Shown one piece after another: positions 8,507 through 25,000 of a stretch of DNA of 25,000 nucleotides. The stretch is from Psilocybe cubensis (lineage: Eukaryota). The notes below the pieces were generated by a model. That model saw only the letters and a program-made list of their open reading frames with translations, was not told the origin of the DNA and did not search any database. The stretch spans positions 1 through 25,000 of the forward strand of contig JAFIQS020000021.1 of the NCBI GenBank assembly GCA_017499595.2, given 5' to 3'. Position numbers and translations under genes: made by a program. Each line of letters starts with the position of its first letter. The first letter of the stretch is position 1.

Positions 8507-9637
8507 CTATTCTCTGTGTATGGTCATGTCCTCCATCTTTTGTCTTACTTCTCTATCTTCGTCATACACTCGACGGCGCTTCATGACGGGTATCTTCGCG
8601 ATTTCTGCGTCATTCTCTATGAACTCTGCTGGGCCATTTCGTACGTCTTGCTGTTTGTGAGGTCAGTGTTATTCATTTTCCCTGAACATGCTTGCCTCAC
8701 TAACCACATCATGTATGAGCGTAAGCGCTCTCAGAACTGTGGTCATCGCGACAGCTTTGTCTTTGTGCATCACTCCTATGAATGCTATGGTCGCTCGGAC
8801 TATGTCTCCAACTTTGAACACGCTGGGAACCACACGCGATGTGCTGAGTCATTGATCGGATACTGTTAGTATGCCGCTGTGTATGAGATGTACCACAAAG
8901 CTCACCTTGTACCGTTATCGTTTTTGACTTCTCGCAAATAGTCGACCTTGTTGTCCATGGTGTGTATGAGATCGTCTCCTCTCATGTGCGCCAACACGCC
9001 GTCTGGATCTACACCCATATCGAACGCCAGTCCTGCTTCTGTCGGCGCATGCTTTCTAGGTGTGAAGTAACGCGTACTTGCGTCGACCGCCCAATGACCT
9101 TCGTACATGCTTAAGTTCCACGGCTTTACCTCTATGTCTTCCTTTTTGAGGTATGTCTTCATCATCTCGTGTACATGCTTTATACTAACCGCATCGTCGT
9201 TGAATCCGTTGCTCCGCAGTCCGGTAATTCTAACTCCCTGTCGAAGATATATCGCTTTCTTCTTCATAGACGGTGTTGCGTCACTACGATTGGGTCAGTT
9301 GGGTATGCATTTTGTATATATAGTTATATCATTTACCTTAATTTAATAGGCGGCAATTCGTTTCTGCATATTGCGCCGTACACGTAGAAGTTTTGTTCTT
9401 CAGTGGAATTCGTTCGTGTAATTCTCCACGAGCGAGGTTGTTCTACGTAGACCACTCTATGATCTTCGAGCTGTCAATCGTGTTTTTGGAATCGTCAGTA
9501 TGTTCGTCCATCCATATGAATATGTAAAATACCTGAAAGTCTACCACCGGCATAGCATCGTGTATCGATTTTCGGGCGTCGCAGTACCCTTGGTCCATGA
9601 GGGCCTGCGCAGCGTATTGGTTATAGTTTGGGTCCAT
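8507..9637 (-). CDS. Uncharacterised ~299-aa protein, 5 exons; beta-rich C-terminal domain (candidate OB-fold nucleic-acid binder) plus basic NLS-like KRRR
   Basis: Minus-strand exons 9637-9533, 9470-9337, 9283-8906, 8843-8705, 8650-8507 (900 nt, open; GT-AG introns with CTRAC branch sites). Translation includes YLRQGVRITGL, STRYFTPR, VDPDGVL, HTMDNKVDY, VPSVFKVGDIVRATIAFIGV...MTTVLRALTLIHD and VMKRRRVY. Confidence 0.8.
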
Positions 9638-10655
9638 GCAATTGGTTGAGGGTGGGATTCTGTTTCACTTTTTTTTTTTTTTGGCCTTGTTTGACCGTTT
9701 GGTTTTATGATGTTTCTCGCTTTCCGACTCGTATTCGTGTGTCCCTCTTGTGTAATCTTTCCGTTTCTGTCCGAAATCTGCTACTGTTCCGTTCTCATCG
9801 TCGTGCTTGGTTCGTACTGGTTGTTAATGTTTTGTCTCCTCTCCGGTTGTTGTTACCACCGATCATTTTGTAAAATTTTCATATATTTTTCCTCCTTGCT
9901 TATTCGCTATCGGCGCCGTTTTGACCCTGTCTACTTCGCTCTCATATGTTCCTCTTCCCTGGTGTTCCTGTTCTCGACCGCGGCATTAGGTCGGTTGTTC
10001 ATCTATGGTGTTGTCGTCTCCTCATATGACGCGCTTCATTAAATTGCATTTGTTCTTTAACTTGATTTGGTGTACCGAGTGCCTACTTTTCTCGTTTCAT
10101 GGAGCTCCTCTTGCTTTGCTTGCTCTTTGCCTTTGCTCATCAACGTGTCGCTTCGCCTAGTTCACCTTTTTCGTGTTTTTATGCGTAGTGCGACCATCAT
10201 CTGTCGGCTTTTTTTTTACATCAAATTTTGGTCCATCATTTTTTTTGGCGTCTTTAATCCCTTAAGGCAATCGCTCCTGTACAATGGTGTTTGCTCTTGG
10301 TACGCTCATCACGCGTAATATCTTATTCGTGCTGACTTGCTTGTCTCAGTGGCTTCGGGAGTGTGTATGGTATTCGCTAAAGGCGTTTCCACTCATCGCT
10401 TTCTATCGTACCGAGCGTTAGTCTTTGCATTTTTCTACTCCGTATCAACTCATGGATTTTATTATCCTTTTTCTCTGTTTTTCATGTTTCTCCAAGTAGT
10501 ATTTATCATGTTGAATTCTTGTGATGCTGTCTCATAACCTTTTCTATAAAACCTTGGTTTTTTTTTGTTTAGTGCTTTCCATCTTCGACGCTCTACCTGC
10601 CTCGAGCTCTATCATCTACAGTATTCCTAAGTCTCTTTATCGTTTCAATCACATT
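9638..10655. promoter_or_regulatory. Divergent intergenic region (putative bidirectional promoter), strongly T-rich on the + strand
   Basis: Lies between head-to-head ATGs at 9637(-) and 10656(+). Contains T14 at 9669-9682 and many shorter T runs. Confidence 0.45.
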
Positions 10656-13600
10656 ATGGTTTCCATCAACTCTGCTTATGCTCCTGCTTCTCCCAAGCCT
10701 ACATATGCCGATGTGGTTGCTGGTGATTGCTCGCCCTCTGCTGAATACAAGTAAGCCGTTCCATGTTATTCTATGTACAGTTTATGATTTTAAACGTTGT
10801 GCGTTGTAACAGACATCGTCCTGCAAAAGGCATTCGCAACGTCATAATCCACGTCAAACCCGACAACAAAGAAGATTCTTTTTCTGTTGCCACTGACTCT
10901 GATGACGGACCGTTAGACAGCGTCGCCTCTCGCATTGCTGCCGCAAAGGTCGTCAAACCGGGGAACAAGACTGTTGCGTACGTGTATCCCATACTATCTT
11001 ACCCTGTGTCTTCAATCACGCACGTCGTTTACATGCGTTCCTTCCGTTTTCTTATCTCTGTATTGCAGCGGATCAGATGCGTTGGACAATTTTGTTAGGA
11101 AGACCAGGTCAACAAGTGGCTTGTATGATTTTAGCTGCACATTCCGCACTTTTTTTCTTTTGTTTTGACTACTTTATTGTCGTTATAGGAAACGCGATAT
11201 CGAAGATGCTGCGCTCGTTTGTTCCGATGAGGAGTTGCCGTTAGTGAAATTGCAATCTGATAACCCTTATGTTATGCTGATATTTTGGTTTTGTTATATA
11301 TTTACCTCAGAGCCCGAATTTCCCCTCCGAAGAAGAGTCGTACATCCGTCAGCGCGAACGTTGATGCGACTGTCAATCACGTATCTTACTCGAGTGATTC
11401 TTCGGTCGAAGTCATTCGAGTCGTCGATAATTCGTAAGTTTTACTGCTTGTATCAAATCTCGCCATTATTTCGTTCTGCTTAATACCGTTGGATACTCTG
11501 AACAGAGCCAACGCCCGATATCAGAAGGGTATTAGTGATGCCATATTAGTCGATGATTCATCCGCGGATGAAATGGTCTCTGTTCATCCTACCAGCGGGT
11601 ATGTTTATCATTTACATCTTTTATGTTATTATGTCATACGTTCTCACATCCGCGTATTACAATTCGTGCTCCTGTCAGAGCAAAACCGAATAAACAGAAA
11701 GGCAAGAAGCCACAGAAGACAATGCCCCAAACGGTCCGTATCAAACAAGAGCCTGGCATTGTCATAAAGCAAGAAGCATCTGCTCGTCCCACGTCCGTAT
11801 TGCCCTCTGAAGTTATGGTTAAGAAAGAGTCTGTCGATGTTCATATCCCTCTTGCACCGGATAACGTTGCGTCCACCCCCACAAAGAAAGACAAAGGAAA
11901 ATCATCCGTTTCAAAGAAGGGCTCTGTTGGGATTCGTAGATCCGCTCGGCGTTCGGAAGCTGCGATCGAGCGAGTACCGTTCTCTTTTATTCCACATTGC
12001 GATTGACTGACGTCCTGCTCTTAGTCTGTCGGTGTCTCCGCTGAAGATTGGGTCTGAAATTTCTGGATCTGCTGTTTTGTCTCCACCCATTACTTTGCAG
12101 GGTGATGCTGATTCTGATATCAACCCCTTCTTGCCGTCACCTGAAGTCATTTTGGGCACCAAGTATGTGTATGCTCTAAAAGTCTACGTGAGCATCACTT
12201 AACTTGATTTACAGAATTCCAGGAAAAGGCAAATCCATTCGCATTGTTCTTCCCAGCGGTCCAATCGATCTTCACGAAGATGAAGCTATGATGTTTGCGT
12301 CAGTAATGTTCATTTGTGGTGTTTTTCTTTTATCACTTCTTAATCGGGTTTGATCAGGCACGCGGTCAGAGAGAGTCGAATGCATCAGACCACTTATCCA
12401 TCTTCCAATGCTCTCCCCAGCGGTCCTTCCTCTAGCAAGTTGCTCAAAGCGCTCGATGATGCGTATGAAAAGTACAGTGAAGCAGATGCTCTTAAAACCG
12501 AACATTCGACTTTGGACCCCCCTGTTCAATTTAAGGCGTCTGTAATAAGGTAAATATCCGTCATGCCAATATATGTGATCGTCTTTATCTACCTTTATTC
12601 AACAGTGCCAAATCTATCGACGCGCATTCTGATGTGGTTATGGCCAGTCTTTCTGAACAGCCAAAAACTCGACAAGTGCAGTTTCAATCTTCTTTGACAG
12701 CTGTTCCAATCAATGCCGCTGTTGAAGCTCCCCCTACACCTGTCACTCCAGTTCGAGTTCCCCGCAAGTTCAAGGATGTTGTGCCTGCCGGTCCTGTGAA
12801 CAAAACTCCCAGTCTTGGATTGAACGGGCCGGCTCTGATGGAGGATACCATGCGCTTCTCGGTCAAGTAAGTTAACGTACCCATATGTCATCTTCAATCT
12901 GTTGTCTGACTTGATTTGTGTCTGACCTTAAGACATCTGCCGAAGAAATGCGAAGTTACGAAGACAGATTTACAAGATAGTCTTTTAGAAAGCACTTACG
13001 TTGACCTTCCCAATCTTCAGTAAGTTTTTACCTTCTAAGATAATCGATGTTTTGTTTTGACTATTTCAAGGCATGGTATTCTCAAGCAATGGAACTCGCC
13101 TAATGTCATGGCACCAGTCGACTGTGTTTCTTTTTCTCTCTGCGGTGAGAATTTCCCTGAGATGAATTTTGAGTGAGTTTCGTAAAGCCTTTGCTATACT
13201 TTACTTAATGATGCGTATTGCTTACTCTCTCTACTATGTTATATAGAAACGCTTATGACGCTGTGACTTTTGTAAGGAACAAGAACTTTATCAATCCTTC
13301 GCGGGTTTCGCCTCTGGACGTCAGCATCCTGTATATGGGAAACGATCGTAAGCGTGCCACTTTGCAGTGCAACTCGGTGCCTGCTATCTGCCTGAGTGCA
13401 ATTCTCACCCGCGATTCGTATCTATTGGAGCCGATATCCAAAGGACTGTGTAACAAATTTTTGTCTGGTCACATGATGCACCAGGAGTGGGAACGCTTCG
13501 CTGGATTTGCTTGCATGGCGTTCGGACATCAGGTTATGGTAGCCTCTATCCGTGATAAGGCAATCACCTTTGGCACTATGGGAGTTAAATGTCAGTGGGC

Positions 13601-14123
13601 ACATATGCTTACTTTTTTTTTTTTTTCTTTTTGTACTCACTCAGACACTCACTCAAATAGCGGAGCGGGAATCAATCTCTCCTTCAAAACCTCCTAGGAC
13701 ACCCGGCATACTTTCTGGACAGAAAGATGCCAAACTCCAAGGAGGAAGCCGAAAAGCACTTAAATCAAGCACCAGGTTCAAGACCATGATGGATTCAACC
13801 GACACTAGTAAGTTATCAACATTGTATGTGCTTCAAACCACTGACAATGTCATATATTAGTTCCCATATATGATTCACGTAACCATGCCTTCAATTTCAA
13901 CACTGACCTCGACCGGTTAGACGAATTGCTACCTAGATGGCGTCGCGGAGAGATTCCACCTAACTCCTTTGTTATGGTGGCGTACACTATGACTCAATAC
14001 GAGAAGGAACGGTCATTTCATCTGTGTACCAACATACAGTATGCCGTTGTGTTCGGTACGGAACACGATACCAGCGACATAGAGGCAGAACAGGAGTCCT
14101 TTGCAGGTTTTGATGAAGACTGA
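10656..14123 (+). CDS. Uncharacterised ~829-aa protein, 16 exons: long S/P/K-rich disordered N-terminus, globular C-terminal region (candidate OB-fold) and acidic tail
   Basis: Exons 10656-10750, 10813-10977, 11069-11122, 11189-11239, 11311-11433, 11506-11598, 11679-11969, 12025-12162, 12215-12298, 12358-12549, 12606-12866, 12933-13019, 13071-13172, 13247-13590, 13661-13807, 13861-14123 (2490 nt, open; intron 7 needs a GC donor). The C-terminal part reads FINPSRVSP, HQEWERFAGFACMAFG, IPIYDSR, LPRWRRGEIPPNSFVMVAYT, LCTNIQYAVVFG, DIEAEQESFAGFDED. The 3' exons are more secure than the 5' ones. Confidence 0.72.
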
Positions 14124-14512
14124 ATATTTCATTAAACCTAATGTCTTTTAATACACATAGTTATGGTATTATTTACATTCTCCTTGCTATCTGTTGTTAT
14201 TTTTTGGTATCATATACGTCGCGTAGTCTATTACTTCAATGTTTTTGTTCTTTCTTCGTGTCATTTGTACTCTGCTTCCTGTATCTTTGAATATCCAGTT
14301 AGTATTCTGTCTTATCAACTGCTTCGTATCATATTCTACTTGTCTTCCGTACAAATTTCTCCCGATATAATAATACATACATATTATCATGGCATTACAG
14401 TTGGACATATGCTTTTCCTTTGCGTGTCCCCTCTGCCAAAATTTAAGCGCCCGTTGTCAATAATCGTACGCTACACAGAGTTACCCGGTGTTACCTGTTG
14501 TCAGTGTCTACT

Positions 14513-14535
14513 TATATAAATCGAGGGTCCTCGAT
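14513..14535 (+). promoter_or_regulatory. Candidate TATA box with adjacent palindrome upstream of the Rep-helicase ORF
   Basis: TATATAAA at 14513-14520 overlaps the inverted repeat ATCGAGG-GT-CCTCGAT (14520-14535). A C11 run follows at 14567-14577. Confidence 0.3.
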
Positions 14536-14856
14536 GCGATTCCTTTAATTATTCCTACACATTCCTCCCCCCCCCCCTTGATCGATCTCACACTCATATC
14601 CATCAGACTAGTGAACATATCTATTTACCTTGAAACTTACATTACTCTTTTATATATGCTCGCCGCATCACTTCATTTCTACGCTCTTTTTATTTTAGTT
14701 TCTGGTTGGGGTGAGTTATCTTCTCCTTATGTGTACTGTGTATGATCTGACATTTGTCGCTATTTTGTAGGAATCCTATGTGGCCACATACAATGTTGCA
14801 TTAATGTACACTCCTTGAACGCATCCAATTATGCTGGTGATTCTCGAACAATATCG

Positions 14857-17800
14857 ATGCTTAGTAGTTGTATAGCTGTCAATCAACAGTTGTTTAAAAC
14901 AAATAATTGGTCAATAGACTTTTGCTTACCCTGTGGGGAATTTCCAACCTACGATGTTCGATTTCCTGGCAATAATCTATTGCGTAGTCGTACATGTACT
15001 AGATCTAGCAGCGTATCAAGTGGGCACAAAGTTTGTAGAGTGCGTCTTACTGTAGTATTAGTTCATGTTATGCATTGCTTGAATCGTACTACTACGTCCG
15101 CTTCTGAGATACCCGTCAAACAGTCCCACTCGTATGGAAATGTGCGTTTGTTGCACTCGCAATTTCGCCGCTTCATATATATTGATTGTCATTCAATGTC
15201 GGCTTATTTGTGGTTAAGATTCACGCCTGCAACGTATACACGTAGAGTTTCTATTTTAGTATCTCTGTTGCTCCAACGTAATCATCTCAGGAAGTGGGAA
15301 TATAATAGGTGCCTGGTAGCCATTTTGCCAAGATGCGCCTTGCATCAATTCACGCTCGACAGACATTACACGCAACCTCGTCTTTGGTCAGAGAAATATC
15401 CCTTCATTAATATAGTATCGAAGGGCGTTCTAATGTATCCGTTTCAGTGTTCCTGGTTATTCGGTCTCAACTATTTCCACTACATCTCATTTACTGCTAA
15501 TGTTTCTGAATGCTCATACTATCATCCTTCCGATGTCTTGCAAGGCGGAGGTGGCGGTGTTTCAAAGGTTGTCAGCTCAGAGATTTTGCGATACCGTGTG
15601 GTACAAGATACGGGATGTGCCTCCGTTCAAGCTAAAACTAAATACAGATTTGTGAAGTACCTTGCTACAGACGCTCACATTTCAACTTCCATTGACAATA
15701 TATCTGATTTAATAGTTGCTAGGTTCTCTCTCTTTGACACTGCTAGTTGGCTGTCTGTTTCTGAAATTAGGTCTATTGCAAGTTTACATGGAGTGTACGG
15801 CATCAATTCAACCACAAATAGAGGCAATGCCATTGAACTTTTGCGTGATCATGTGTGCGGAACTTGCCTTCGTAATGTCTGTATTTTTGAACGTGTGGTA
15901 TCAGTGTCAGATAGAAAAATTAAGAGCAATTCATCTTCTTGTAATCCAGATCGGCAGTTTGAACTTACAGACAGTGCTGTAAATTTTTCTCGCTTCGTTT
16001 CATCTGCTTTAATAGAAAGTCATATTGTACCCTATAGTGGCACAGCATCGTTTAATTATAGTGATACATACAAGTTCGTTAGGTATATGCCGTACATACG
16101 TGATTTAGAGTCATTTCTCTCTGCCGAAGCGTCCGCACCCCACAAACGCCGTCTAGTTCTTTGTCGATTTTCTATACAAAGTGCAACCAAATGGCTCACT
16201 TCAAGCGAGCTTCGGGATGTACTGAAAGAACACGGTATTACATCATTTAATTCCAAGACCAAAAAATCTGCTCTGATAAAATTAACAGATGGTCATGAAT
16301 GTGGTATATGTTCCACTCATTTATATATCTTTGAGGCAATACCTAGTACAGTCAATTCAGAAGAGTCAATCATGCATAATCGTAACCAAAATGTTCTACA
16401 TAAACGAGCATCTCGAGAACGTCAGAGGCAGGCAGGCGCAGAATCTGCTAATTCCGATGTTGACATGCTCAACGGTGATGCTTTTGTATCCACATCAGAC
16501 TCTGACCACACTTCAAACGACCATGTGTTTCCGCCACAACCACCGTCAAAGCTTCTGATAGAGGAAATCATCAATGGATTTTGCGCTGATTCATCTGCAT
16601 CTCTACTGGAGGAAGCAGGCTGCATGGTCTGCGGTCTGCTGCAGCCTTTGCATAATTTAACTCACTTGTCTATGTTTGATCATCCCCTTGACATACTCGC
16701 AGTTGAGGGAGCTACCCGTGTAGAGAGATTACATCCTGACGACCCGGTGAAGGACATCCCGGGCCCTGTGATCGATCCTGCATGTAACCATGTATGCGAT
16801 ACTTGCTCTGCTGCGTTGAAAAAAGGTCATGTGCCGAGACATTCGCTTGCAAATCATTTGTGGTTAGGTAAAATACCTTCTCAGCTGCAAGATCTTTCGT
16901 TTGCAGAGCGCATGATGATTGCTCGCATTCGGCATAATCGCTGTCTGGTCAGAGTTTCCTCTGGGCGGGCTAAAATGACAGCAAATGTCATCATGTACTC
17001 TAATCCAACGCTGAAAGTGTATCATGAATTACCTCCTTCAAAGCCAGAACTTGACGAGGTACTTGCCTTTATATTTACAGGACCAACCCAACCCACGGAA
17101 GAAGAGTTCAAGCGTAGTCCAATGCTAGTGCGTCGCAATAAGGTCGCAGATGCTCTGGAATGGTTGAAACTTAACCATAAGGATTATATTGATCTTGAAA
17201 TATCCAAGAAAAATCTCCAGTCTTACCCGCTGATAGGTGTCCCCGTAGCTGTAGACTACAGACAGCGCAACGGTACTAATCGTATGGAGTCTACAATGAG
17301 TCTACACGACGAAGGCGAAGATGAAGGAACTGTAGACGGACCTTGTCCGTTTACTGTCCATGGCTTGAGTGGAACAGACTATGGCAATATGTCCATACAA
17401 GCTTTGAAGGCAAAAGCCTTGCAACACATAGAAAATGAAGGCAAAATGCTAGCTATTGGGCATGATCCAAAACCGCAGTCTATGTACGATAATCCTCAGG
17501 CCTATCCGCAGATGTTCCCTTGGCTATTTCCTTACGGTTATGGTGGAATAGGTCAGCATTGTCATAAGCGTAAACTTTCAGAGTCAGAACATAAGCGAAT
17601 ACTGCTTATGCACCATGATAAGCGTTTCCAGCGCGACCTTTATTTTCCTATTATTGCATTCAATCACGAGCAACTGAAAGGTGGCGTTACTGGTAGCTTT
17701 CTTGTTGCAAAACGCCGTAATTTTGATGCGATATCTAAAAGATTGCTCTCTATAGACAAAACGGTTCTTCAAGACATTTCCTCTCGTCTTGTAAATGGGG

Positions 17801-20800
17801 ACCATGTATCACCTGAAACAGACAGTGAGAAAGACTGTTACAAACTTTTAGATGATCTTGACCACGTTGGAGGATATGTTAAAGGGTCAATCACGTCTAA
17901 AAAGTATATGCGCAATGAGATATGGTCTTTGCTTTCTTTCAAAGGTTGCCCAATATGGTTTATAACCTTGTCACCTGCCGATAACAGACATCCTATATCA
18001 ATATATTATGCCAAAGAACAGCTGACCTTTACACCAGACATATTACCTTCTTCTGAAAGGAATAGACTGGTTGCACAGAATCCCGTATCGGCTGCCCGTT
18101 TTTTTCATCTCATAATTGAATTGTTTATTAAACACGTGCTAGGCGTCGGATCCAATATTCATCGAGGTTTGTATGGTAAAACTTCAGCGTACTATGGTAC
18201 GGTAGAACAGCAGGGAAGACTCACCTTACATTTGCATATGTTACTATGGATTGAGAATTGCTTGTCTCCACAGCAAATCCGTGACCGTATTATGAACAAC
18301 GACTCTGCATTTCAGGCGAGCCTTCTATCATATTTGGAAGGCTGTCATCAAGGCGAATTTCTTACAGGAAACATGCAGACTGTTAAAGACCGCGTGCCAC
18401 ATATTTACGACAAAGAAATTGATGGACTTCATTCAATTATACAAGAGGATGACGAGGCTGTAAATTCCAGTTACGCAGATCCGACTCTAACACTCCCTAT
18501 ACCGGTAGAACATGCTTGTCAAGATTCCAATGGTCCGGACCACTGCACATCATGCATTTCTAATGCTGAATGGTGGGACAATTACGAAACTACAGTCGAT
18601 GATATCATATTGAAGTCCAATGTGCACAGATGCACTGTTTCATACGGTCAGCAAATTGATGACCCTGACGGATCAAAAGGTATAAAAAATATGCCTAAGG
18701 GCCCGAAAGGTTGCCTGGATTGGAATGGAAATTGTAAAGCACGATTTCCGCGAAGGCTGTACGAACAGTCTCAAGTCGATCACGTCGACGGTCACATATT
18801 TTTGAAAAAGTTGGAAGCGATGTTAAATACCTTTACTCTTCCGCTGTCGTACCTCACAAGAAGTAATACCGACGTGACATGTCTGTTGTCGGGTACTTCG
18901 ATAAAAGCAATAATATATTATATATCAGACTATATTAGCAAACCCGCATTGAAAACGTATCAGATATTTACCTCTATGTATGACGTGTTTGAACGTGAAG
19001 AAAAAAAAGTTAAAGACGATGTCAAGATTGAAGGTAAAGACGCAGGCAGAAGGTTGATGCTTAAAATTGTCAACTCTCTGTCTTCTAAGATGGAGATAGG
19101 TTCTCCGATGGCCTCCTTGTATTTATTGGGCAACCCTGATCATTACACTGATCATACCTTTGTACCTTTTTGGTGGAGAAGTTTTGTAAGTGACGCAAGG
19201 AGCAGTCATAAATCCGGTATCACTGATGACCAAGCCGCCCACCTACCTACCGTAGAGGATCTAGAAAATGCTGAAGATGAAGAACAGAAAGTTATATTAG
19301 CTCGACATGACGGTCATTATGTAGGTTCTAGTAATGTAGATGATTATAAATACCGCCCAGTCACTCAAGAAGACATGTCTCTATTCGACTGGATTAGATC
19401 TTATGAGCGCCGTAAGCTCACTAAAAATGAAATGGAGCGTTTGCGTAGTGAAACACTCACCTTCGAAGATGATCATGCGTCCGACATACGTGAAGGCGGG
19501 GGGATGGAAGATTTCATTGATGCATGTCTTGGTATACCTGCAGATGATGATTCTGATCAACGTGTTAAATATGACGGTGTGCGAAAAAATATTAAAATAA
19601 ACAAAAGAAGTTTTGAACGTTTCACTGAGGAGCACCCTCTTTATTCCACTCACGTAGTCAAATGTGACTCATCCCGAGCGCACAATATTGTCCCCAATTT
19701 TCTAGGCGGTCCCCTTCCACGGCGCGACAAAGGCGACAGAGAGTATTATTGTTGCAGTATGCTGACCTTGTTCAAACCTTGGAGGTCTGGGTTAGATTTG
19801 AAATCATTGCATCAGACTTGGGAACATGCATTCACCATTTACGCTTTTTCCGACCGACAGTTGAAACTAATGGATAACTTTAATCTGCGATATGAATGTT
19901 TAGACGACAGAGACGATTTTCACGCACAGTTAAGAAGGAAAGACGGAGAACAACAAGATGTTTACACGGATGAACTCTATCCTGATGGTTGCGGTCTCGA
20001 CGATCAATACAACGACTTTGTCGGCCTTGAATTCGGTGAAGATCATTTAGATTATGAAGAGATTGGTGAGGCATACCGCAGAGAGGTGTTGTTAAAGCGA
20101 GAAGTAGATGGCATCATACAATCTGCAGGATTGTTTTCTAACGCCTCTAGCGATGTTACATGTCAAGAAGTCAGCATGTTCAGGCCTGCTGAATACAAGA
20201 CGCATACGAGCTGGGCATCTCTAATAAAAGCTGAAAAAATTAGACTGTTTAAACAGAAGTTGTCCGGTTACGTGCCTTCAGATCCCTCAGATGATATAAC
20301 AAACATTCATATTTCCAACGAAGAGTCTACTAATGACGTCAAAGTAGTTTCTTCGGATTATCTGCTCAGGTCGTACAAGGCAAAGCAAATGGAACATAAT
20401 GTGTTAGTAGATTCTACAGTCGCCGATTTCACCTTGAATACGGAACAGGAAAGGGCTTTCCGTATTGTTGCCAATCACGCTAGTTTGCTGTCGCCTGGTC
20501 AGCTGAGGATGCATCTCGGTGGCATGGGCGGTACTGGCAAAAGTCAAGTGATCAAATCTATCATTCATATGTTTGAGTCGAGAGGCGAATCTCACCGATT
20601 TGTGGTTCTCGCACCCACAGGTACCGCTGCTGCACTCCTCAACGGATCTACTTATCACAGTGTATTAGGAATACGGTCCAAGTCGGATCGTGGTCAAGAC
20701 TTTTCAAAAAACGAAGTCGCAGTAATAAATGACGTACGAGCTCGATTAAAGGGTGTCAAGTATATCTTTATTGATGAAATATCTATGCTGTCGTCGAGGG

Positions 20801-23172
20801 ATTTATATGCCATTAGTAGACGTCTGTCACAAGTGTTTAACGACGATACACTGTTCGGAGGTATATCAATGATCTTAGCTGGTGACTTCGCTCAGCTACC
20901 GCCGGTAGGTAATCTCCCCTTTTATAGTCCTTCCATTAAACATACGCAAGACGCTCGCATGAAGGTGTCCGAGCAAGAAGCTACTCTAGGCAAGATATTC
21001 TGGCACCAATTCACGACTGTCGTTATTCTAAAACAAAACATGAGACAAAAAACGCAGACTGAGGAAGACGCAAAGTTGCGCACTGCACTTGAAAACATGC
21101 GGTATGCCGCCTGTACAGACGCTGATATATCGTTCCTCAAGTCAAGGTTAGCTTCTAAACTGACGACTATTGAAGGTAAACCTATATTGACTGACCCTGC
21201 TTTTCGCAACGTATCTGTTATCACTGCGTGGAATAATCAAAAGGATAGGTTCAATGAGCAGGGCATCGCAAGATACGCTAAAGAGAGCGGACGTACATTG
21301 CATCATTTTTTCTCTGTCGATAGTCTGGGTACACAAGAAGGAGAAACTCGCAGGCCTCGCGGACGACCATCAGGATCGTCTAAAGCAACCAAACAGACAA
21401 AGATGTCCCAGCGTCTTCAGGAAGCCCTATGGGGTCGCAGCGCCTGTTCTAGCGAACAAGTGCCAGCAAAACTTTCTCTGTGCGTAGGTCTGCCAGTTAT
21501 GATACGGCATAACGACGCCACAGAGTTGTGTATCACTAAAGGACAGGAGGCTGTCGTCGTAGGATGGGAATCTTCTGTTGGTGCGTTTGGTAGACCTGTA
21601 CTTGATACGCTGTTCGTGGAATTAATCAGACCGCCGAACCCTGTATCATTAGCTGACTTGCCTGTTAATGTTGTTCCACTTACGCGAACGTCGTCTCGAG
21701 TAACATGTACTCTCAAGTCTGGCACAAAAATCAATGTAAACCGCCAGCAGGTATTAGTGCTGCCCAATTTTGCCATGACCGATTATTCGTCTCAAGGTAA
21801 GACGCGAGATTATAACTTGATACATTTAGATCATTGTAAGGATCATTCGTCTTATTACACCTGTGTATCTAGAAGTTCGAACGCCAGTGGTACCATCTTA
21901 CTCGGTAGATTCGATGCGTCTAAGATTACAAAGGGTATTAGTGGGCACCTGCGCCAGGAATTCCGTGAACTCAATATATTAGATCATATCACCACCATGA
22001 AATACAATGGACAGCTTCCAGACGGCGTGTTGCATGGATTAAGGAATCCGACAATTCGGTCTTTCATGCTTCTCGACGTATCGCAATCCATTGGTACAGA
22101 CTGGCATCCTACCTTGGCAGTCTCTTCATCAAAGCAGCTTATCAGAACTCCGGAAAAGGACGGCACCTGGTCTCTCAACAGTGTTAAGGCAATTGTCACC
22201 GACAGGGCAAAAGATAAGCGCAATAAGCGCCAACCAATTCGCTCAGACTGTATAGGACCGAGGAAACGAATGTTGCTAAGCACACCCTCCGAGTTTGCGG
22301 TCCTACCTGTAGGTACAAAGTGGGACGCGGACAACTACAGTTGCAGTTACGACTCCATCTTTACCGTGTTATATAACCTATGGATAAGTGCACCTGAGAT
22401 GTGGACCAATAGATTCAGTGATTTGACACCGTTATTAGACAGACTCAGCGGACAATTCGCACTTGTGCAGAATGGATCAATTTCTCTAGAGAGCGCACGA
22501 AACGACGTCAGAAACGATATGCACTCACGCAGCCCGCTTGATTTTCCTATGGGTCCAAATATGACATACATTGACAGAGTTATGACCGCTGTGATGGGCC
22601 AGCGATCTTCTGGAATGTCTGTTCTCGTGTGCAGTAAATGCGGCTACAATGACCAAAGACCCGTAATGCGACTAGGCGAATATATAAGTGTGGCACGCAC
22701 TGGCGTTTTCCACGACGACTCCCAGGAGGTGTCTTCTATTTCAGACAGTTTAGGTTTTAACCTGAGCGATGCTCAACGATTGAGTTCGAAGAATTGCCCT
22801 TCGTGTGCACAAAATCAGCATATCGTATATATGTCGCTATGCCATAAGGTTGAACGATTACCTTACATTATGACAGTGGATATATGCTCGCCACGGTTTG
22901 CTATAAACCCTGATATTATGTTCAAATCGGATAGTTTCAACGTAGAGTATAAGCTTACTGGGGTTGTCTACGGCGGGCAACATCATTTTGTTTCTCGGTA
23001 TGTTGACCTGCAAGGGGACGTGTGGTTCCACGACGGCATTACTACTGGAAATAGATGCGTAAAGGAGGGTAATGTTCATGACCTTGTTAATGATGTATCT
23101 CAATGGCTACGCATTTCCGTAAATGGGGGAAACTTGAAACATGCATTGTATGCTATTTACGCGAGGGAATAA
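14857..23172 (+). CDS. Helitron-type Rep-helicase (RepHel) polyprotein, ~2771 aa, intronless, with a C-terminal USP-like protease domain
   Basis: Frame open from 14815 (first ATG 14857; true start uncertain). DUF6570-like region (CMVCG, SLANHLWLG, LQDLSFAERMMIAR, VRRNKVADALEWLKLNHKDY; ~16530-17190). FPWLFPYGYGG. Rep motif 1 WFITLSP, HUH motif EQQGRLTLHLH (18229-18237), Y2 motif YISDYISK (18919-18942). PIF1 helicase: GMGGTGKS (20521-20544), APTGTAA, IDEISM (20770-20787), GDFAQLPPV, KQNMRQ, FAMTDYSSQGKT, YTCVSR. Confidence 0.93.
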   Translation: MLSSCIAVNQQLFKTNNWSIDFCLPCGEFPTYDVRFPGNNLLRSRTCTRSSSVSSGHKVCRVRLTVVLVHVMHCLNRTTTSASEIPVKQSHSYGNVRLLHSQFRRFIYIDCHSMSAYLWLRFTPATYTRRVSILVSLLLQRNHLRKWEYNRCLVAILPRCALHQFTLDRHYTQPRLWSEKYPFINIVSKGVLMYPFQCSWLFGLNYFHYISFTANVSECSYYHPSDVLQGGGGGVSKVVSSEILRYRVVQDTGCASVQAKTKYRFVKYLATDAHISTSIDNISDLIVARFSLFDTASWLSVSEIRSIASLHGVYGINSTTNRGNAIELLRDHVCGTCLRNVCIFERVVSVSDRKIKSNSSSCNPDRQFELTDSAVNFSRFVSSALIESHIVPYSGTASFNYSDTYKFVRYMPYIRDLESFLSAEASAPHKRRLVLCRFSIQSATKWLTSSELRDVLKEHGITSFNSKTKKSALIKLTDGHECGICSTHLYIFEAIPSTVNSEESIMHNRNQNVLHKRASRERQRQAGAESANSDVDMLNGDAFVSTSDSDHTSNDHVFPPQPPSKLLIEEIINGFCADSSASLLEEAGCMVCGLLQPLHNLTHLSMFDHPLDILAVEGATRVERLHPDDPVKDIPGPVIDPACNHVCDTCSAALKKGHVPRHSLANHLWLGKIPSQLQDLSFAERMMIARIRHNRCLVRVSSGRAKMTANVIMYSNPTLKVYHELPPSKPELDEVLAFIFTGPTQPTEEEFKRSPMLVRRNKVADALEWLKLNHKDYIDLEISKKNLQSYPLIGVPVAVDYRQRNGTNRMESTMSLHDEGEDEGTVDGPCPFTVHGLSGTDYGNMSIQALKAKALQHIENEGKMLAIGHDPKPQSMYDNPQAYPQMFPWLFPYGYGGIGQHCHKRKLSESEHKRILLMHHDKRFQRDLYFPIIAFNHEQLKGGVTGSFLVAKRRNFDAISKRLLSIDKTVLQDISSRLVNGDHVSPETDSEKDCYKLLDDLDHVGGYVKGSITSKKYMRNEIWSLLSFKGCPIWFITLSPADNRHPISIYYAKEQLTFTPDILPSSERNRLVAQNPVSAARFFHLIIELFIKHVLGVGSNIHRGLYGKTSAYYGTVEQQGRLTLHLHMLLWIENCLSPQQIRDRIMNNDSAFQASLLSYLEGCHQGEFLTGNMQTVKDRVPHIYDKEIDGLHSIIQEDDEAVNSSYADPTLTLPIPVEHACQDSNGPDHCTSCISNAEWWDNYETTVDDIILKSNVHRCTVSYGQQIDDPDGSKGIKNMPKGPKGCLDWNGNCKARFPRRLYEQSQVDHVDGHIFLKKLEAMLNTFTLPLSYLTRSNTDVTCLLSGTSIKAIIYYISDYISKPALKTYQIFTSMYDVFEREEKKVKDDVKIEGKDAGRRLMLKIVNSLSSKMEIGSPMASLYLLGNPDHYTDHTFVPFWWRSFVSDARSSHKSGITDDQAAHLPTVEDLENAEDEEQKVILARHDGHYVGSSNVDDYKYRPVTQEDMSLFDWIRSYERRKLTKNEMERLRSETLTFEDDHASDIREGGGMEDFIDACLGIPADDDSDQRVKYDGVRKNIKINKRSFERFTEEHPLYSTHVVKCDSSRAHNIVPNFLGGPLPRRDKGDREYYCCSMLTLFKPWRSGLDLKSLHQTWEHAFTIYAFSDRQLKLMDNFNLRYECLDDRDDFHAQLRRKDGEQQDVYTDELYPDGCGLDDQYNDFVGLEFGEDHLDYEEIGEAYRREVLLKREVDGIIQSAGLFSNASSDVTCQEVSMFRPAEYKTHTSWASLIKAEKIRLFKQKLSGYVPSDPSDDITNIHISNEESTNDVKVVSSDYLLRSYKAKQMEHNVLVDSTVADFTLNTEQERAFRIVANHASLLSPGQLRMHLGGMGGTGKSQVIKSIIHMFESRGESHRFVVLAPTGTAAALLNGSTYHSVLGIRSKSDRGQDFSKNEVAVINDVRARLKGVKYIFIDEISMLSSRDLYAISRRLSQVFNDDTLFGGISMILAGDFAQLPPVGNLPFYSPSIKHTQDARMKVSEQEATLGKIFWHQFTTVVILKQNMRQKTQTEEDAKLRTALENMRYAACTDADISFLKSRLASKLTTIEGKPILTDPAFRNVSVITAWNNQKDRFNEQGIARYAKESGRTLHHFFSVDSLGTQEGETRRPRGRPSGSSKATKQTKMSQRLQEALWGRSACSSEQVPAKLSLCVGLPVMIRHNDATELCITKGQEAVVVGWESSVGAFGRPVLDTLFVELIRPPNPVSLADLPVNVVPLTRTSSRVTCTLKSGTKINVNRQQVLVLPNFAMTDYSSQGKTRDYNLIHLDHCKDHSSYYTCVSRSSNASGTILLGRFDASKITKGISGHLRQEFRELNILDHITTMKYNGQLPDGVLHGLRNPTIRSFMLLDVSQSIGTDWHPTLAVSSSKQLIRTPEKDGTWSLNSVKAIVTDRAKDKRNKRQPIRSDCIGPRKRMLLSTPSEFAVLPVGTKWDADNYSCSYDSIFTVLYNLWISAPEMWTNRFSDLTPLLDRLSGQFALVQNGSISLESARNDVRNDMHSRSPLDFPMGPNMTYIDRVMTAVMGQRSSGMSVLVCSKCGYNDQRPVMRLGEYISVARTGVFHDDSQEVSSISDSLGFNLSDAQRLSSKNCPSCAQNQHIVYMSLCHKVERLPYIMTVDICSPRFAINPDIMFKSDSFNVEYKLTGVVYGGQHHFVSRYVDLQGDVWFHDGITTGNRCVKEGNVHDLVNDVSQWLRISVNGGNLKHALYAIYARE
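15571..16335 (+). repeat. Two tandem ~110-aa protein repeats (helix-extension-helix-like segment plus H...HxCxxC putative Zn site) within RepHel
   Basis: Repeat 1 (15571-15891): VSSEIL...KYRFVKY...RFSL...WLSVSEIRSIASLHGV...HVCGTC...IFE. Repeat 2 (15997-16335): VSSALI...TYKFVRY...RFSI...WLTSSELRDVLKEHGI...HECGIC...IFE. Confidence 0.8.
22306..23172 (+). other. USP/peptidase C19-like papain-fold cysteine protease domain at the RepHel C-terminus
   Basis: Cys box WDADNYSCSYDS (Cys 22342-22344); CSKC (22630-22641) and CPSC (22795-22806) Zn-finger pairs; His box YKLTGVVYGGQHHFVSRY (His 22984-22986) followed by WFHDG (Asp 23032-23034); terminal ALYAIY strand. Confidence 0.75.
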
Positions 23173-23774
23173 GATGAAAATTTATCCAAAGTGTTTTATG
23201 GTTATGGAGGCCTCAGTTGATACATGCTCAGATAACAACTGTTTATATTCATATCAGTATGGTATTTATCGTTCGATAGTGTCGCAGCGTATCAGTCTAT
23301 TAGACTCAGCTGTATAATCTGAACCCATAGACTACATTGCATCGAGCATCGTGTGGTTGAAAGGACGATCCAAAAGCGTGGGAGAATGTCGTACATGTTC
23401 CTTTAATACCTTCGCATCAAAGGGATATCGGAACTTGCCGAAATTTCGTTCACCGCTCTGTTTAAGAACTGTGCCTATCCGACTTGAACACCTTTTTCGA
23501 CGTTGTCATTTGCTGCCACATCGTACCAGTATTCGTATCTTCAAGGCTAATATACAATATTTGTTAGGCTGTAGGTTATATTACGATATATGATAGAAAT
23601 ATTGATGGTATTCTAAATGTGTTCAAATCGATAGTTCATTTTGAAGAACACCTTAAACCTGTCAGCGACTGCTTTGCAGAGTCGTTGCTTTAGTATGTCT
23701 ATATCTACTCACGCAATGCTATACATATAAACGGCAAATTTTTAATTTTTTTTCTGCTTCTTTTTAGACTACCT

Positions 23775-25000
23775 ATGGCTCCCAACCCATTCTTGGACTT
23801 AGAAGCGAATGTCGATCACGGAGATTCAGAGGATGGTTCAGCCGAATCTGACGAATTTGGTGCGCATAATATTTCGTTTTACTCAGTCTCATGTCATTCC
23901 AACATACGAGATAAACCAAATTTACTCGCAGAATGCTTCATCGACGACGGAACTCAATCCCATGAAGATTGTGACGGTTCATCATCTGTGGCAATGGACA
24001 AACCCATTCCTGTTACAAAGAGAGACCGACTGGCCCTCGTAATTCAACAAATTGAAGAGAGAACACGTGGTAGATCTCACTCACTGCCCGCCTCTGATAT
24101 GTACCGGGGTGTGGAACCATTGTATTCAAACGCTGACAATCCTACTGTTTTGTCACCGCACGGAAACACTGATTCGGGCTTCGAAAATCTGCCCACGGAC
24201 TATCCTACATGGAGGATTGGATGTAAAGTAAGTTTAATACCATCGAATTAAATTTGTGTGTTGCCAACCATATCGATGAACAATACGTAAGGTCGGATAC
24301 GAAGAAATCGCGGTCGCTTCTTTACTCAAAAACTCGCGCCGAGAACATCATATTCGGTCCGCGTTTTCACGCAGTTCTGTACATGGATACATATACTTGG
24401 AATGTTTGATGGATCAGCCTATGATTGACCTTATCAAAAGATCGCCCGGCATCATCGTAAAAACTACGGACGTGCTCCTGAGTCCGATCGATAAGAATGA
24501 GGCTCAGCAACTGTTGTACATGGGAGGGGACATTACGAACCTATCGGTCGGAAAATGGCTCAAGGTTAAACGAGGTGTATACAAAGGCGATGTAGGCTTT
24601 GTCGTTTCGAAAGGATCGTGGGGGGTGTCAATGCTTATGATCCCCCGTTACGAGTACGTGTCCACCAAAACGAAGTCATCTCGTAAACGGAAGACATACA
24701 CTGCGGTGCCCGCGCCTAAGCTATTCGATCCGACAGGCCTTCGTAACTCTCATTTATACATAGAATCAGGCAGAGCATCTGTCTATCGCGTAGGTGATCT
24801 GATCTTTGAGCATGGTTTGGCCCGGGTGGACTACGATCCCAGACACGTTGCCTCATGTCGTGAAGGTCTGAGTTACGTGACGTATACATCATTTTGTATG
24901 AGTGGGCATCCCGCACTCCATCACGCGCCGATACCAAAGCCAAAGGAATGGATCATGCGAACCATGGAATGGGTGGTAATGAGATCTACAGGTTGGCTCG
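23775..25000 (+). CDS. Divergent Spt5-like transcription elongation factor paralogue (acidic N-terminus, NGN domain, KOW1); 3' end beyond the window
   Basis: Exons 23775-23859, 23932-24227, 24292->25000 (open to the window end). NPFLDLEANV and FIDD acidic N-terminal motifs; NGN motifs WRIGCKVGYEE and IRSAFSRSSVHGYIYLE; KOW1 GKWLKVKRGVYKGDVGFV, LMIPR, PAPKLFDP. TATAAA at 23726-23731. Confidence 0.85.

Follow-up and report, generated by a model that had tools for sequence, protein, structure and literature searches.

A giant Helitron-like transposase of Psilocybe cubensis ends in a divergent, predicted USP-fold cysteine protease domain

We studied a Helitron-like transposon lying in a 25,000-nucleotide stretch of Psilocybe cubensis DNA (assembly GCA_017499595.2, contig JAFIQS020000021.1, positions 1 to 25,000 of the forward strand; this whole stretch is called the window, and all coordinates refer to it), and in particular the last 288 amino acids (aa) of its transposase, in which a Rep endonuclease and a helicase are joined in one polypeptide (RepHel). 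The reading that we favour, and regard as probable, is that this giant protein of the HLE2 (Helitron2-like) type ends in a divergent and complete cysteine protease domain of the ubiquitin-specific protease (USP) fold, which is active and stabilises the transposition complex. The parts of this reading differ in strength. On the structure model it is very likely that the domain has the USP thumb-palm-fingers fold and an intact catalytic apparatus with a predicted Cys-His-Asp triad; an activity as deubiquitinase, or as isopeptidase of a ubiquitin-like (Ubl) modifier, seems fairly likely; and our confidence in any particular substrate is low.

The preliminary description of this DNA had proposed a USP-like stretch fused to the C-terminus of a Helitron Rep-helicase, with a Cys box, two CxxC pairs, a His box and an Asp in the order known from USP (C19) proteases. 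All of these motifs were found in that order in frame 1 of 22306-23172 (Table 1), and the fusion is real, because DUF6570, Helitron_like_N (Rep) and PIF1 domains lie upstream of the tail in one and the same stop-free frame. Relatives of the domain were collected by an exhaustive HMMER search of 1.84 billion representative proteins (50%-identity clusters), which returned 1104 proteins at E ≤ 0.001, 446 at E ≤ 1e-10 and 48 at E ≤ 1e-30, the best of them with 48% identity (E 3e-84). The named relatives were all annotated as 'hypothetical protein' and all belonged to Agaricales: Flammula alnicola, Gymnopilus junonius, Galerina marginata and three Mycena species. Neighbours in the ESM Atlas were Basidiomycota clusters without a Pfam family, followed by clusters of PF00443 (UCH), the nearest named ones. 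A word-indexed protein search retained 0 of 255 candidates of near length for the domain and 0 of 598 for region 2521-2808 of the frame; these empty results represent a limit of that index, since the exhaustive search gave 1104 relatives.

An alignment of the window domain with 62 short homologues (63 rows) showed a mean column identity of 20%. Eight residues, S12, C13, D16, C109, C164, C167, Y222 and H227 in domain numbering, were invariant in 63/63 rows, and the columns of W6, D7, C112, W240, D243 and G244 were conserved at ≥90%. A wider count was made on 159 domain rows from related proteins, with the filled rows of each column as denominator. The proposed nucleophile C13 was Cys in 148/149 rows and the proposed catalytic H227 was His in 145/145, while D243, the proposed third member of the triad, was Asp in 140/143, with 2 Asn and 1 Ala; the zinc-ribbon cysteines were kept in 152/152 (C109), 147/152 (C112), 141/142 (C164) and 142/143 (C167) rows. 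The motif pattern of the tail is far beyond chance, and no column of the family is better conserved than those of the quoted residues. Conservation of the triad among homologues had been named beforehand as a check on the proposal, and it holds, as does that of both CxxC pairs. The two adjacent histidines of GGQHHF, both quoted as part of the His box, fared differently: the second is H227, whereas the first is variable, the commonest residue in its column being F (29/159 rows), with gaps in 14/159.

Matches to known structures were sought by sequence and by fold. A search of PDB sequences with the single domain sequence gave chance-level matches only (RRP40, E 0.85). The profile of the 63-row alignment, run against PDB sequences, placed USP12 first (E 0.003), followed by Ubp8, PAN2 (E 0.039), USP46 and USP15, and aligned both CxxC pairs of the domain to the USP fingers. 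An AlphaFold2 model of the domain, built on the same alignment, had a mean predicted local distance difference test score (pLDDT) of 94.5 and a predicted template modelling score (pTM) of 0.92; its secondary structure puts the three proposed triad residues at the helix and strand positions listed in Table 1. The model shows fingers that would carry a four-Cys zinc ribbon, and the proposed His and Asp on neighbouring palm strands. A Foldseek search of the PDB with this model yielded 401 matches at E ≤ 0.001, and among the matches listed every one was a USP-fold enzyme, including USP1, 18, 46, 54, 30, 14, 7, 2, 21, 35, 36 and 47, USPL1 and Ubp8; the best match was USP1 (E 5.7e-10). Among viral models (BFVD), giant-virus USPs came first (E 2.5e-10), and coronavirus polyproteins bearing the papain-like protease (PLpro) occupied ranks 25-48 (E 6e-6 and weaker).

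Structural alignment with VIA-align gave Z-scores of 15-17 across ~230-250 of the 288 residues, at 8-15% identity to the PDB USPs. The highest was that of USP12 (5k16_B; Z 16.9, 248 residues aligned, root-mean-square deviation (rmsd) 5.2), followed by USP46 (16.6), USP1 (16.1), USP18 (16.0) and USPL1 (15.9), and model residues 1-288 were spanned. For five structures whose titles name the active-site Cys, the alignment starts 10 residues before it: USP14 (start 104, C114), USP30 (67, C77), USP35 (440, C450), Ubp8 (136, C146) and USP2 (266, C276). This puts C13 no more than 2 residues away from the nucleophile of the USPs; that H227 and D243 correspond to the USP His and Asp is judged from the order of the motifs and the secondary structure. 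The claim of a USP/C19-type fold was thereby upheld by the kind of check proposed for it, AlphaFold followed by a fold search, which gives USPs over the full length of the domain.

The position of the domain within the protein was compared in 155 related proteins. Stretches collinear with the Rep and/or helicase part of the window frame were present in 67/155; 66/155 carried helicase sequence together with the domain, and the remaining one of the 67 (P0156) ends ahead of the protease domain. A further 42/155 begin in the linker and 46/155 consist of the domain only, and 152/155 end ≤64 aa past the last aligned residue. Four homologues of 2501-2598 aa presented the same order of DUF6570, Rep and PIF1, with the protease domain C-terminal. 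The domain always forms the C-terminus, and a disordered basic linker precedes it; a K/R-rich patch in this linker may act as a nuclear localisation signal (NLS), judging from its composition. In an AlphaFold2 model of the last 710 residues (pLDDT 79.4, pTM 0.47) no additional domain separated the protease from the C-terminal domain of the helicase, and residues 371-420 of the model were at pLDDT ~30; given the pTM of 0.47, the helicase and protease halves are not fixed relative to each other.

We also considered whether the short 'USP-only' proteins form a separate domesticated clade, and rejected this, as fused and unfused states are interleaved on the tree. The count used a FastTree phylogeny of 142 domain rows, after removal of rows with <200 domain residues; on it, the state 'helicase sequence upstream' switches 43 times, as compared with 47.0 ± 3.1 changes with shuffled labels; 29/300 shuffles were at or below 43. 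Because of this interleaving with fused forms, the short forms look like truncated gene models or contig ends and not like a separate gene family.

Table 1. Features of the transposase frame and of its C-terminal protease-like domain; positions are those of the window.
Feature	Position	Strand	Basis or remark
RepHel-USP transposase of Helitron-like element	14746..23172	+	stop-to-stop open frame, 2808 codons, uninterrupted
N-terminal module, two tandem copies	15640..16380	+	each a HeH/SAP-like helix motif, then C-x2-C
DUF6570 domain	16822..17220	+	Pfam E 1.2e-39, profile 1-133 of 133
Helitron_like_N, Rep (HUH-type) endonuclease	17602..18246	+	Pfam E 4.1e-33
HLH motif	18226-18249	+	motif in Rep region
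Y-x3-Y motif	18916-18942	+	motif in Rep region
PIF1-like SF1 helicase core	20434..21069	+	Pfam PIF1 E 3.7e-27; AAA_19 and AAA_30 also match
Walker A, GGMGGTGKS	20518-20544	+	helicase motif
Walker B, IFIDEISM	20764-20787	+	helicase motif
Disordered basic linker, helicase C-terminal domain to protease	22150..22299	+	ORF residues 2469-2518, ~50 residues
K/R-rich, NLS-like patch in linker	22210-22269	+	sequence
Predicted USP-fold (thumb-palm-fingers) cysteine protease domain, 288 aa	22306..23169	+	predicted fold, family, conservation, PDB profile matches
Cys box, NYSCSYDS	22333-22356	+	frame 1
Codon of proposed nucleophile Cys (C13 of domain)	22342..22344	+	opens helix 13-28; conserved
First CxxC, CSKC (C109, C112), fingers zinc ribbon (predicted)	22630..22641	+	aligns to first CxxC of USP12
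Second CxxC, CPSC (C164, C167), fingers zinc ribbon (predicted)	22795..22806	+	aligns to second CxxC of USP12
His box, YKLTGVVYGGQHHFVSRYV	22948-23004	+	frame 1
Codon of proposed catalytic His (H227)	22984..22986	+	opens strand 227-233; conserved
WFHDG motif (family form W-[FY]-H-D-G)	23023-23037	+	frame 1
Codon of proposed third triad residue Asp (D243)	23032..23034	+	directly after strand 238-242
Stop codon of transposase frame	23170-23172	+	frame 1

Under the favoured reading, the domain would have isopeptidase activity and strip proteins of ubiquitin or a ubiquitin-like modifier. It would work in the nucleus, tethered to the Rep-helicase, and owing to this tethering it would act on whatever is ubiquitylated beside the transposition intermediate. 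Possible targets are the transposase itself, including its covalent tyrosyl-DNA form, and, at the donor or target site, proteins of replication or chromatin; the outcome would be a transposition complex stabilised against ubiquitin-dependent removal. The preliminary description had suggested three possible roles, namely protection of the Rep-DNA adduct, editing of PCNA or histone ubiquitin, and processing of the polyprotein; the present results do not favour one of the first two over the other and lend no support to the third.

Several results weigh against this proposal. The 288-aa tail gave no match to Pfam UCH or to any protease family at E ≤ 1, and among the 62 relatives there was one Pfam UCH match at E ≤ 0.005 (E 3.8e-4), with 20.6 bits versus a cut-off of 23.9 bits; the domain is a USP-fold relative beyond the current Pfam UCH model, and not a member by Pfam's gathering threshold. 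The canonical USP Cys box, with its characteristic spacing from a conserved Gly and its oxyanion-hole Asn/Gln, served for comparison. The spacing from the Gly is 2 residues longer here, among 147 filled rows position -3 of the box holds N 95 times and D 42 times, and the oxyanion-hole position appears, from the aligned sequences, to hold no invariant Asn/Gln. The Foldseek TM-scores of 0.41-0.59, at an rmsd of ~5 Å, are moderate, and the fold search ties ubiquitin-specific USPs with the SUMO-specific USPL1 (Z 16.9 vs 15.9). Finally, the flat depth of two genomic read sets indicates one copy of the element at ≥90% identity, which leaves recent activity unsupported.

The tie between ubiquitin-specific and SUMO-specific structures bears on the alternative that survives best, namely an active domain whose target is not ubiquitin but a modifier similar to it (SUMO/Smt3, NEDD8/Rub1 or another Ubl). 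Within the USP fold, USPL1 is specific for SUMO and USP18 for ISG15. Their structures, at Z 15.9 and 16.0 against 16.9, are in the range of a tie, and they appear at Foldseek ranks 2, 6, 23 and 29; the surroundings of the Cys box are non-canonical. According to the accessible text of Erven et al. (2022; PMC9741609), the deubiquitinase domains (VTDs) of Helentrons also cleave NEDD8. Against a Ubl-specific enzyme stand the best profile matches, which are USP12, USP46 and Ubp8 and not USPL1 or USP18. Moreover, ubiquitin specificity is the rule among USP-fold enzymes whose zinc ribbon is intact. We consider a Ubl-specific enzyme unlikely.

A second alternative is that the protease acts in cis and cuts the giant RepHel protein into working parts, in the manner of coronavirus PLpro. 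The domain does sit in a very large replicase-like protein, and PLpro-bearing polyproteins are among the viral fold matches (ranks 25-48); however, giant-virus and cellular USPs match better than PLpro, and the disordered linker (ORF residues 2469-2518) has neither Gly-Gly nor an LXGG-type site. The 12 GG dipeptides of the frame fall in the unconserved N-terminus, in helicase motifs (Walker A; LFGG), in the protease domain and in the Rep and central parts. We know of no cleaved products, and we judge self-processing to be very improbable. Least probable of all is that the domain is catalytically dead and serves for ubiquitin binding or scaffolding, or that it is a fragment of a captured host gene, carried along passively and of no use to the element: USP-fold pseudoenzymes exist, PAN2 is among the profile matches (E 0.039) and Helitrons are known for gene capture (PMC11417382, in its accessible portion), but the triad is kept in 148/149, 145/145 and 140/143 rows despite a mean column identity of 20%, which is not expected of a dead or drifting domain, and the domain stands in frame and in the same place in homologues that are 31-35% identical within it.

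Beyond the favoured reading of an active, complex-stabilising protease, we put forward a wider proposal, as a doubtful one: that eukaryotic rolling-circle transposition generally needs a transposase-borne deubiquitinase, that different lineages independently took OTU, VTD, Ulp1 or USP domains for this purpose, and that the fungal USP would strip ubiquitin or SUMO from the Rep-tyrosyl-DNA intermediate, or from neighbouring PCNA or histones, so that the complex escapes DNA-protein-crosslink repair and the proteasome.

Similarity of the window frame to homologues extends back to ORF (open reading frame) residue 292, and the full-length homologues measure 2501-2598 aa; the translation start is probably the ATG at 15433 (ORF residue 230), which would yield a protein of ~2579 aa. 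The HLH and Y-x3-Y motifs of the Rep region are presumably the HUH motif and the catalytic Tyr pair, as in Helitron Rep. Near the N-terminus, two tandem modules of ~95 aa each are 31% identical over 94 aa (E 5e-16 between the copies), and Pfam HeH matches one of them at 16195-16284 (E 1.1e-4, 22.3 bits, under the 28.9-bit cut-off); this duplicated module may have a DNA-binding role.

An autonomous HLE2-type (DUF6570-bearing) Helitron-like transposon of an agaric-type fungus is the best explanation of the element: Rep (HUH) and a PIF1-type helicase share one ORF, and DUF6570 lies upstream of Rep. Pfam searches for Exo_endo_phos, OTU and Herpes_teg_N gave no match at E ≤ 1 from 16000 on and none at E ≤ 0.01 in 14746-16200. 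A Helentron (HLE2 subgroup b) was rejected, as no C-terminal AP-type endonuclease (Exo_endo_phos) was detected at E ≤ 1 in 16000-23169 and the USP-like domain occupies that place; it is because no endonuclease domain is present that we call the element HLE2-type rather than a Helentron. A deubiquitinase of the OTU or VTD (C76) class was likewise discarded, there being no Pfam match at E ≤ 1 and the fold matches being USPs. Scans for inverted repeats, meant to reveal terminal repeats or a 3' hairpin, yielded short, chance-like pairs only. Read depth in two genomic runs was flat at ~50x over 9000-25000, with no joints, no boundary and no empty site. Coverage was not meaningful in two sequencing runs presumed to be RNA, with a single contig that touched 18-21 bases.

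The 8.7 kb of 14746-23400 occur word for word (share 1.00) in seven assemblies, with three organism codes and from three studies; therefore, the same element copy is present in several sequenced isolates. Variants were read from two genomic read sets with the same species label. Over 9900-24400, inside the element and in its flanks, minor variants stand at ~15-50% of reads and are mostly C>T or G>A; nine in-frame variants are isolated single transitions, 7/9 of them in CpG context. These minor variants fit a second haplotype with deamination-type changes, as for methylated repeat DNA. A cluster of low-frequency variants occurs at 17923-17926, where G>A at 17924 (2/46 reads in one run and 7/49 in the other) would make a Trp codon a stop, and loose read ends are found at 18165 and 18197. 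Both the cluster and the loose ends point to reads that stem from a second copy or allele of the Rep region, diverged or broken. Downstream of the element, an ORF at 24280-24999 that runs off the end of the window matches Spt5-NGN (E 1.1e-4, 22.6 bits, cut-off 22.4) and, just under the 22-bit cut-off, KOW1_SPT5 (E 5.2e-4, 20.5 bits); it could be an Spt5-like paralogue or cargo of another element.

These results would add another deubiquitinase class to those carried by rolling-circle transposons. Helitron-like elements are already known to carry deubiquitinase modules, namely OTU, VTD and, in animal HLE2, Pfam UCH. In the present case the predicted USP fold sits directly on the transposase polypeptide, in fungi amenable to culture and transformation, and a compact, confidently modelled domain of 288 aa offers a handle on why rolling-circle transposons keep acquiring deubiquitinases. 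The family also makes clear that surveys of transposon cargo by Pfam undercount protease domains.

The domain is not wholly new, as UCH in animal HLE2 and active Helentron VTDs precede it in the literature accessible to us. What seems new is a divergent family that Pfam does not see, fused in frame at the C-terminus and spread among agaric fungi. In the accessible text of the HELIANO study (Li et al. 2024; PMC11417382), Pfam UCH is among 20 domains stably included in Helitron-like elements, and Peptidase_C48 is listed as well; UCH is found almost only in HLE2, with enrichment in subgroups c and d, which are mostly of lungfish and axolotl, and DUF6570 is given as the marker of the HLE2 clade. 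The same text places 17 domains, a set that excludes DUF6570, Herpes_Helicase, Herpes_teg_N and UvrD_C_2, in ORFs distinct from that of RepHel. Our domain resembles the HELIANO UCH in being USP-type, associated with DUF6570-bearing HLE2 and conserved in position relative to RepHel. It differs from the UCH so described in being invisible to Pfam, in frame with RepHel, and with its named relatives in Agaricales. A USP-type domain fused to a fungal RepHel was not found in the accessible literature on Helitron deubiquitinases and DUF6570, the supplements of which may list UCH hosts. In the consulted part of a paper on Pleurotus Helitrons (PMC4289320), RepHel proteins are ~1400 aa long and have no protease domains.

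In zebrafish Helentrons, the portion of Erven et al. (2022; PMC9741609) at hand reports that VTDs react in vitro with ubiquitin and NEDD8 probes and cleave K11, K48 and K63 chains, and its authors suggest that VTDs prevent the degradation of proteins needed for transposition. The preliminary description had named OTU as the protease usually cited in Helitrons; OTU does occur there, but the statement is dated by the VTD activity of 2022 and by the UCH and Peptidase_C48 listed in 2024 (PMC11417382), as far as these texts were accessible. Helentron VTD (herpes-tegument-like, C76) and OTU domains are, like the domain in the window, deubiquitinase-type cysteine protease modules inside a rolling-circle transposon ORF; from the sources consulted, they belong to other protease families and folds and to animal Helentrons with an AP-endonuclease domain.

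With the cellular USP/UBP enzymes (MEROPS C19, PF00443; USP12, USP46 and USP1) the domain shares the fold over its whole length (Z 16-17), as well as the order of Cys box, CxxC...CxxC zinc ribbon, His box and Asp, with the nucleophile at the N-terminus of the first helix. Unlike them, the family has a Cys box of the form G-L-I-W-D-x-x-N-Y-S-C-A-Y-D and a His box of the form x-H-F-T-S-R ... W-[YF]-H-D-G, and it consists of a compact 288-aa core fused to a transposase instead of to host regulatory domains. Coronavirus PLpro is a weaker fold match (E 6e-6 and weaker vs 2.5e-10), and the linker preceding the domain here is free of the LXGG-type site. PLpro serves as both processing protease and deubiquitinase and, like the domain described here, it combines a USP fold and zinc-ribbon fingers within the replicase polyprotein of a selfish genetic element.

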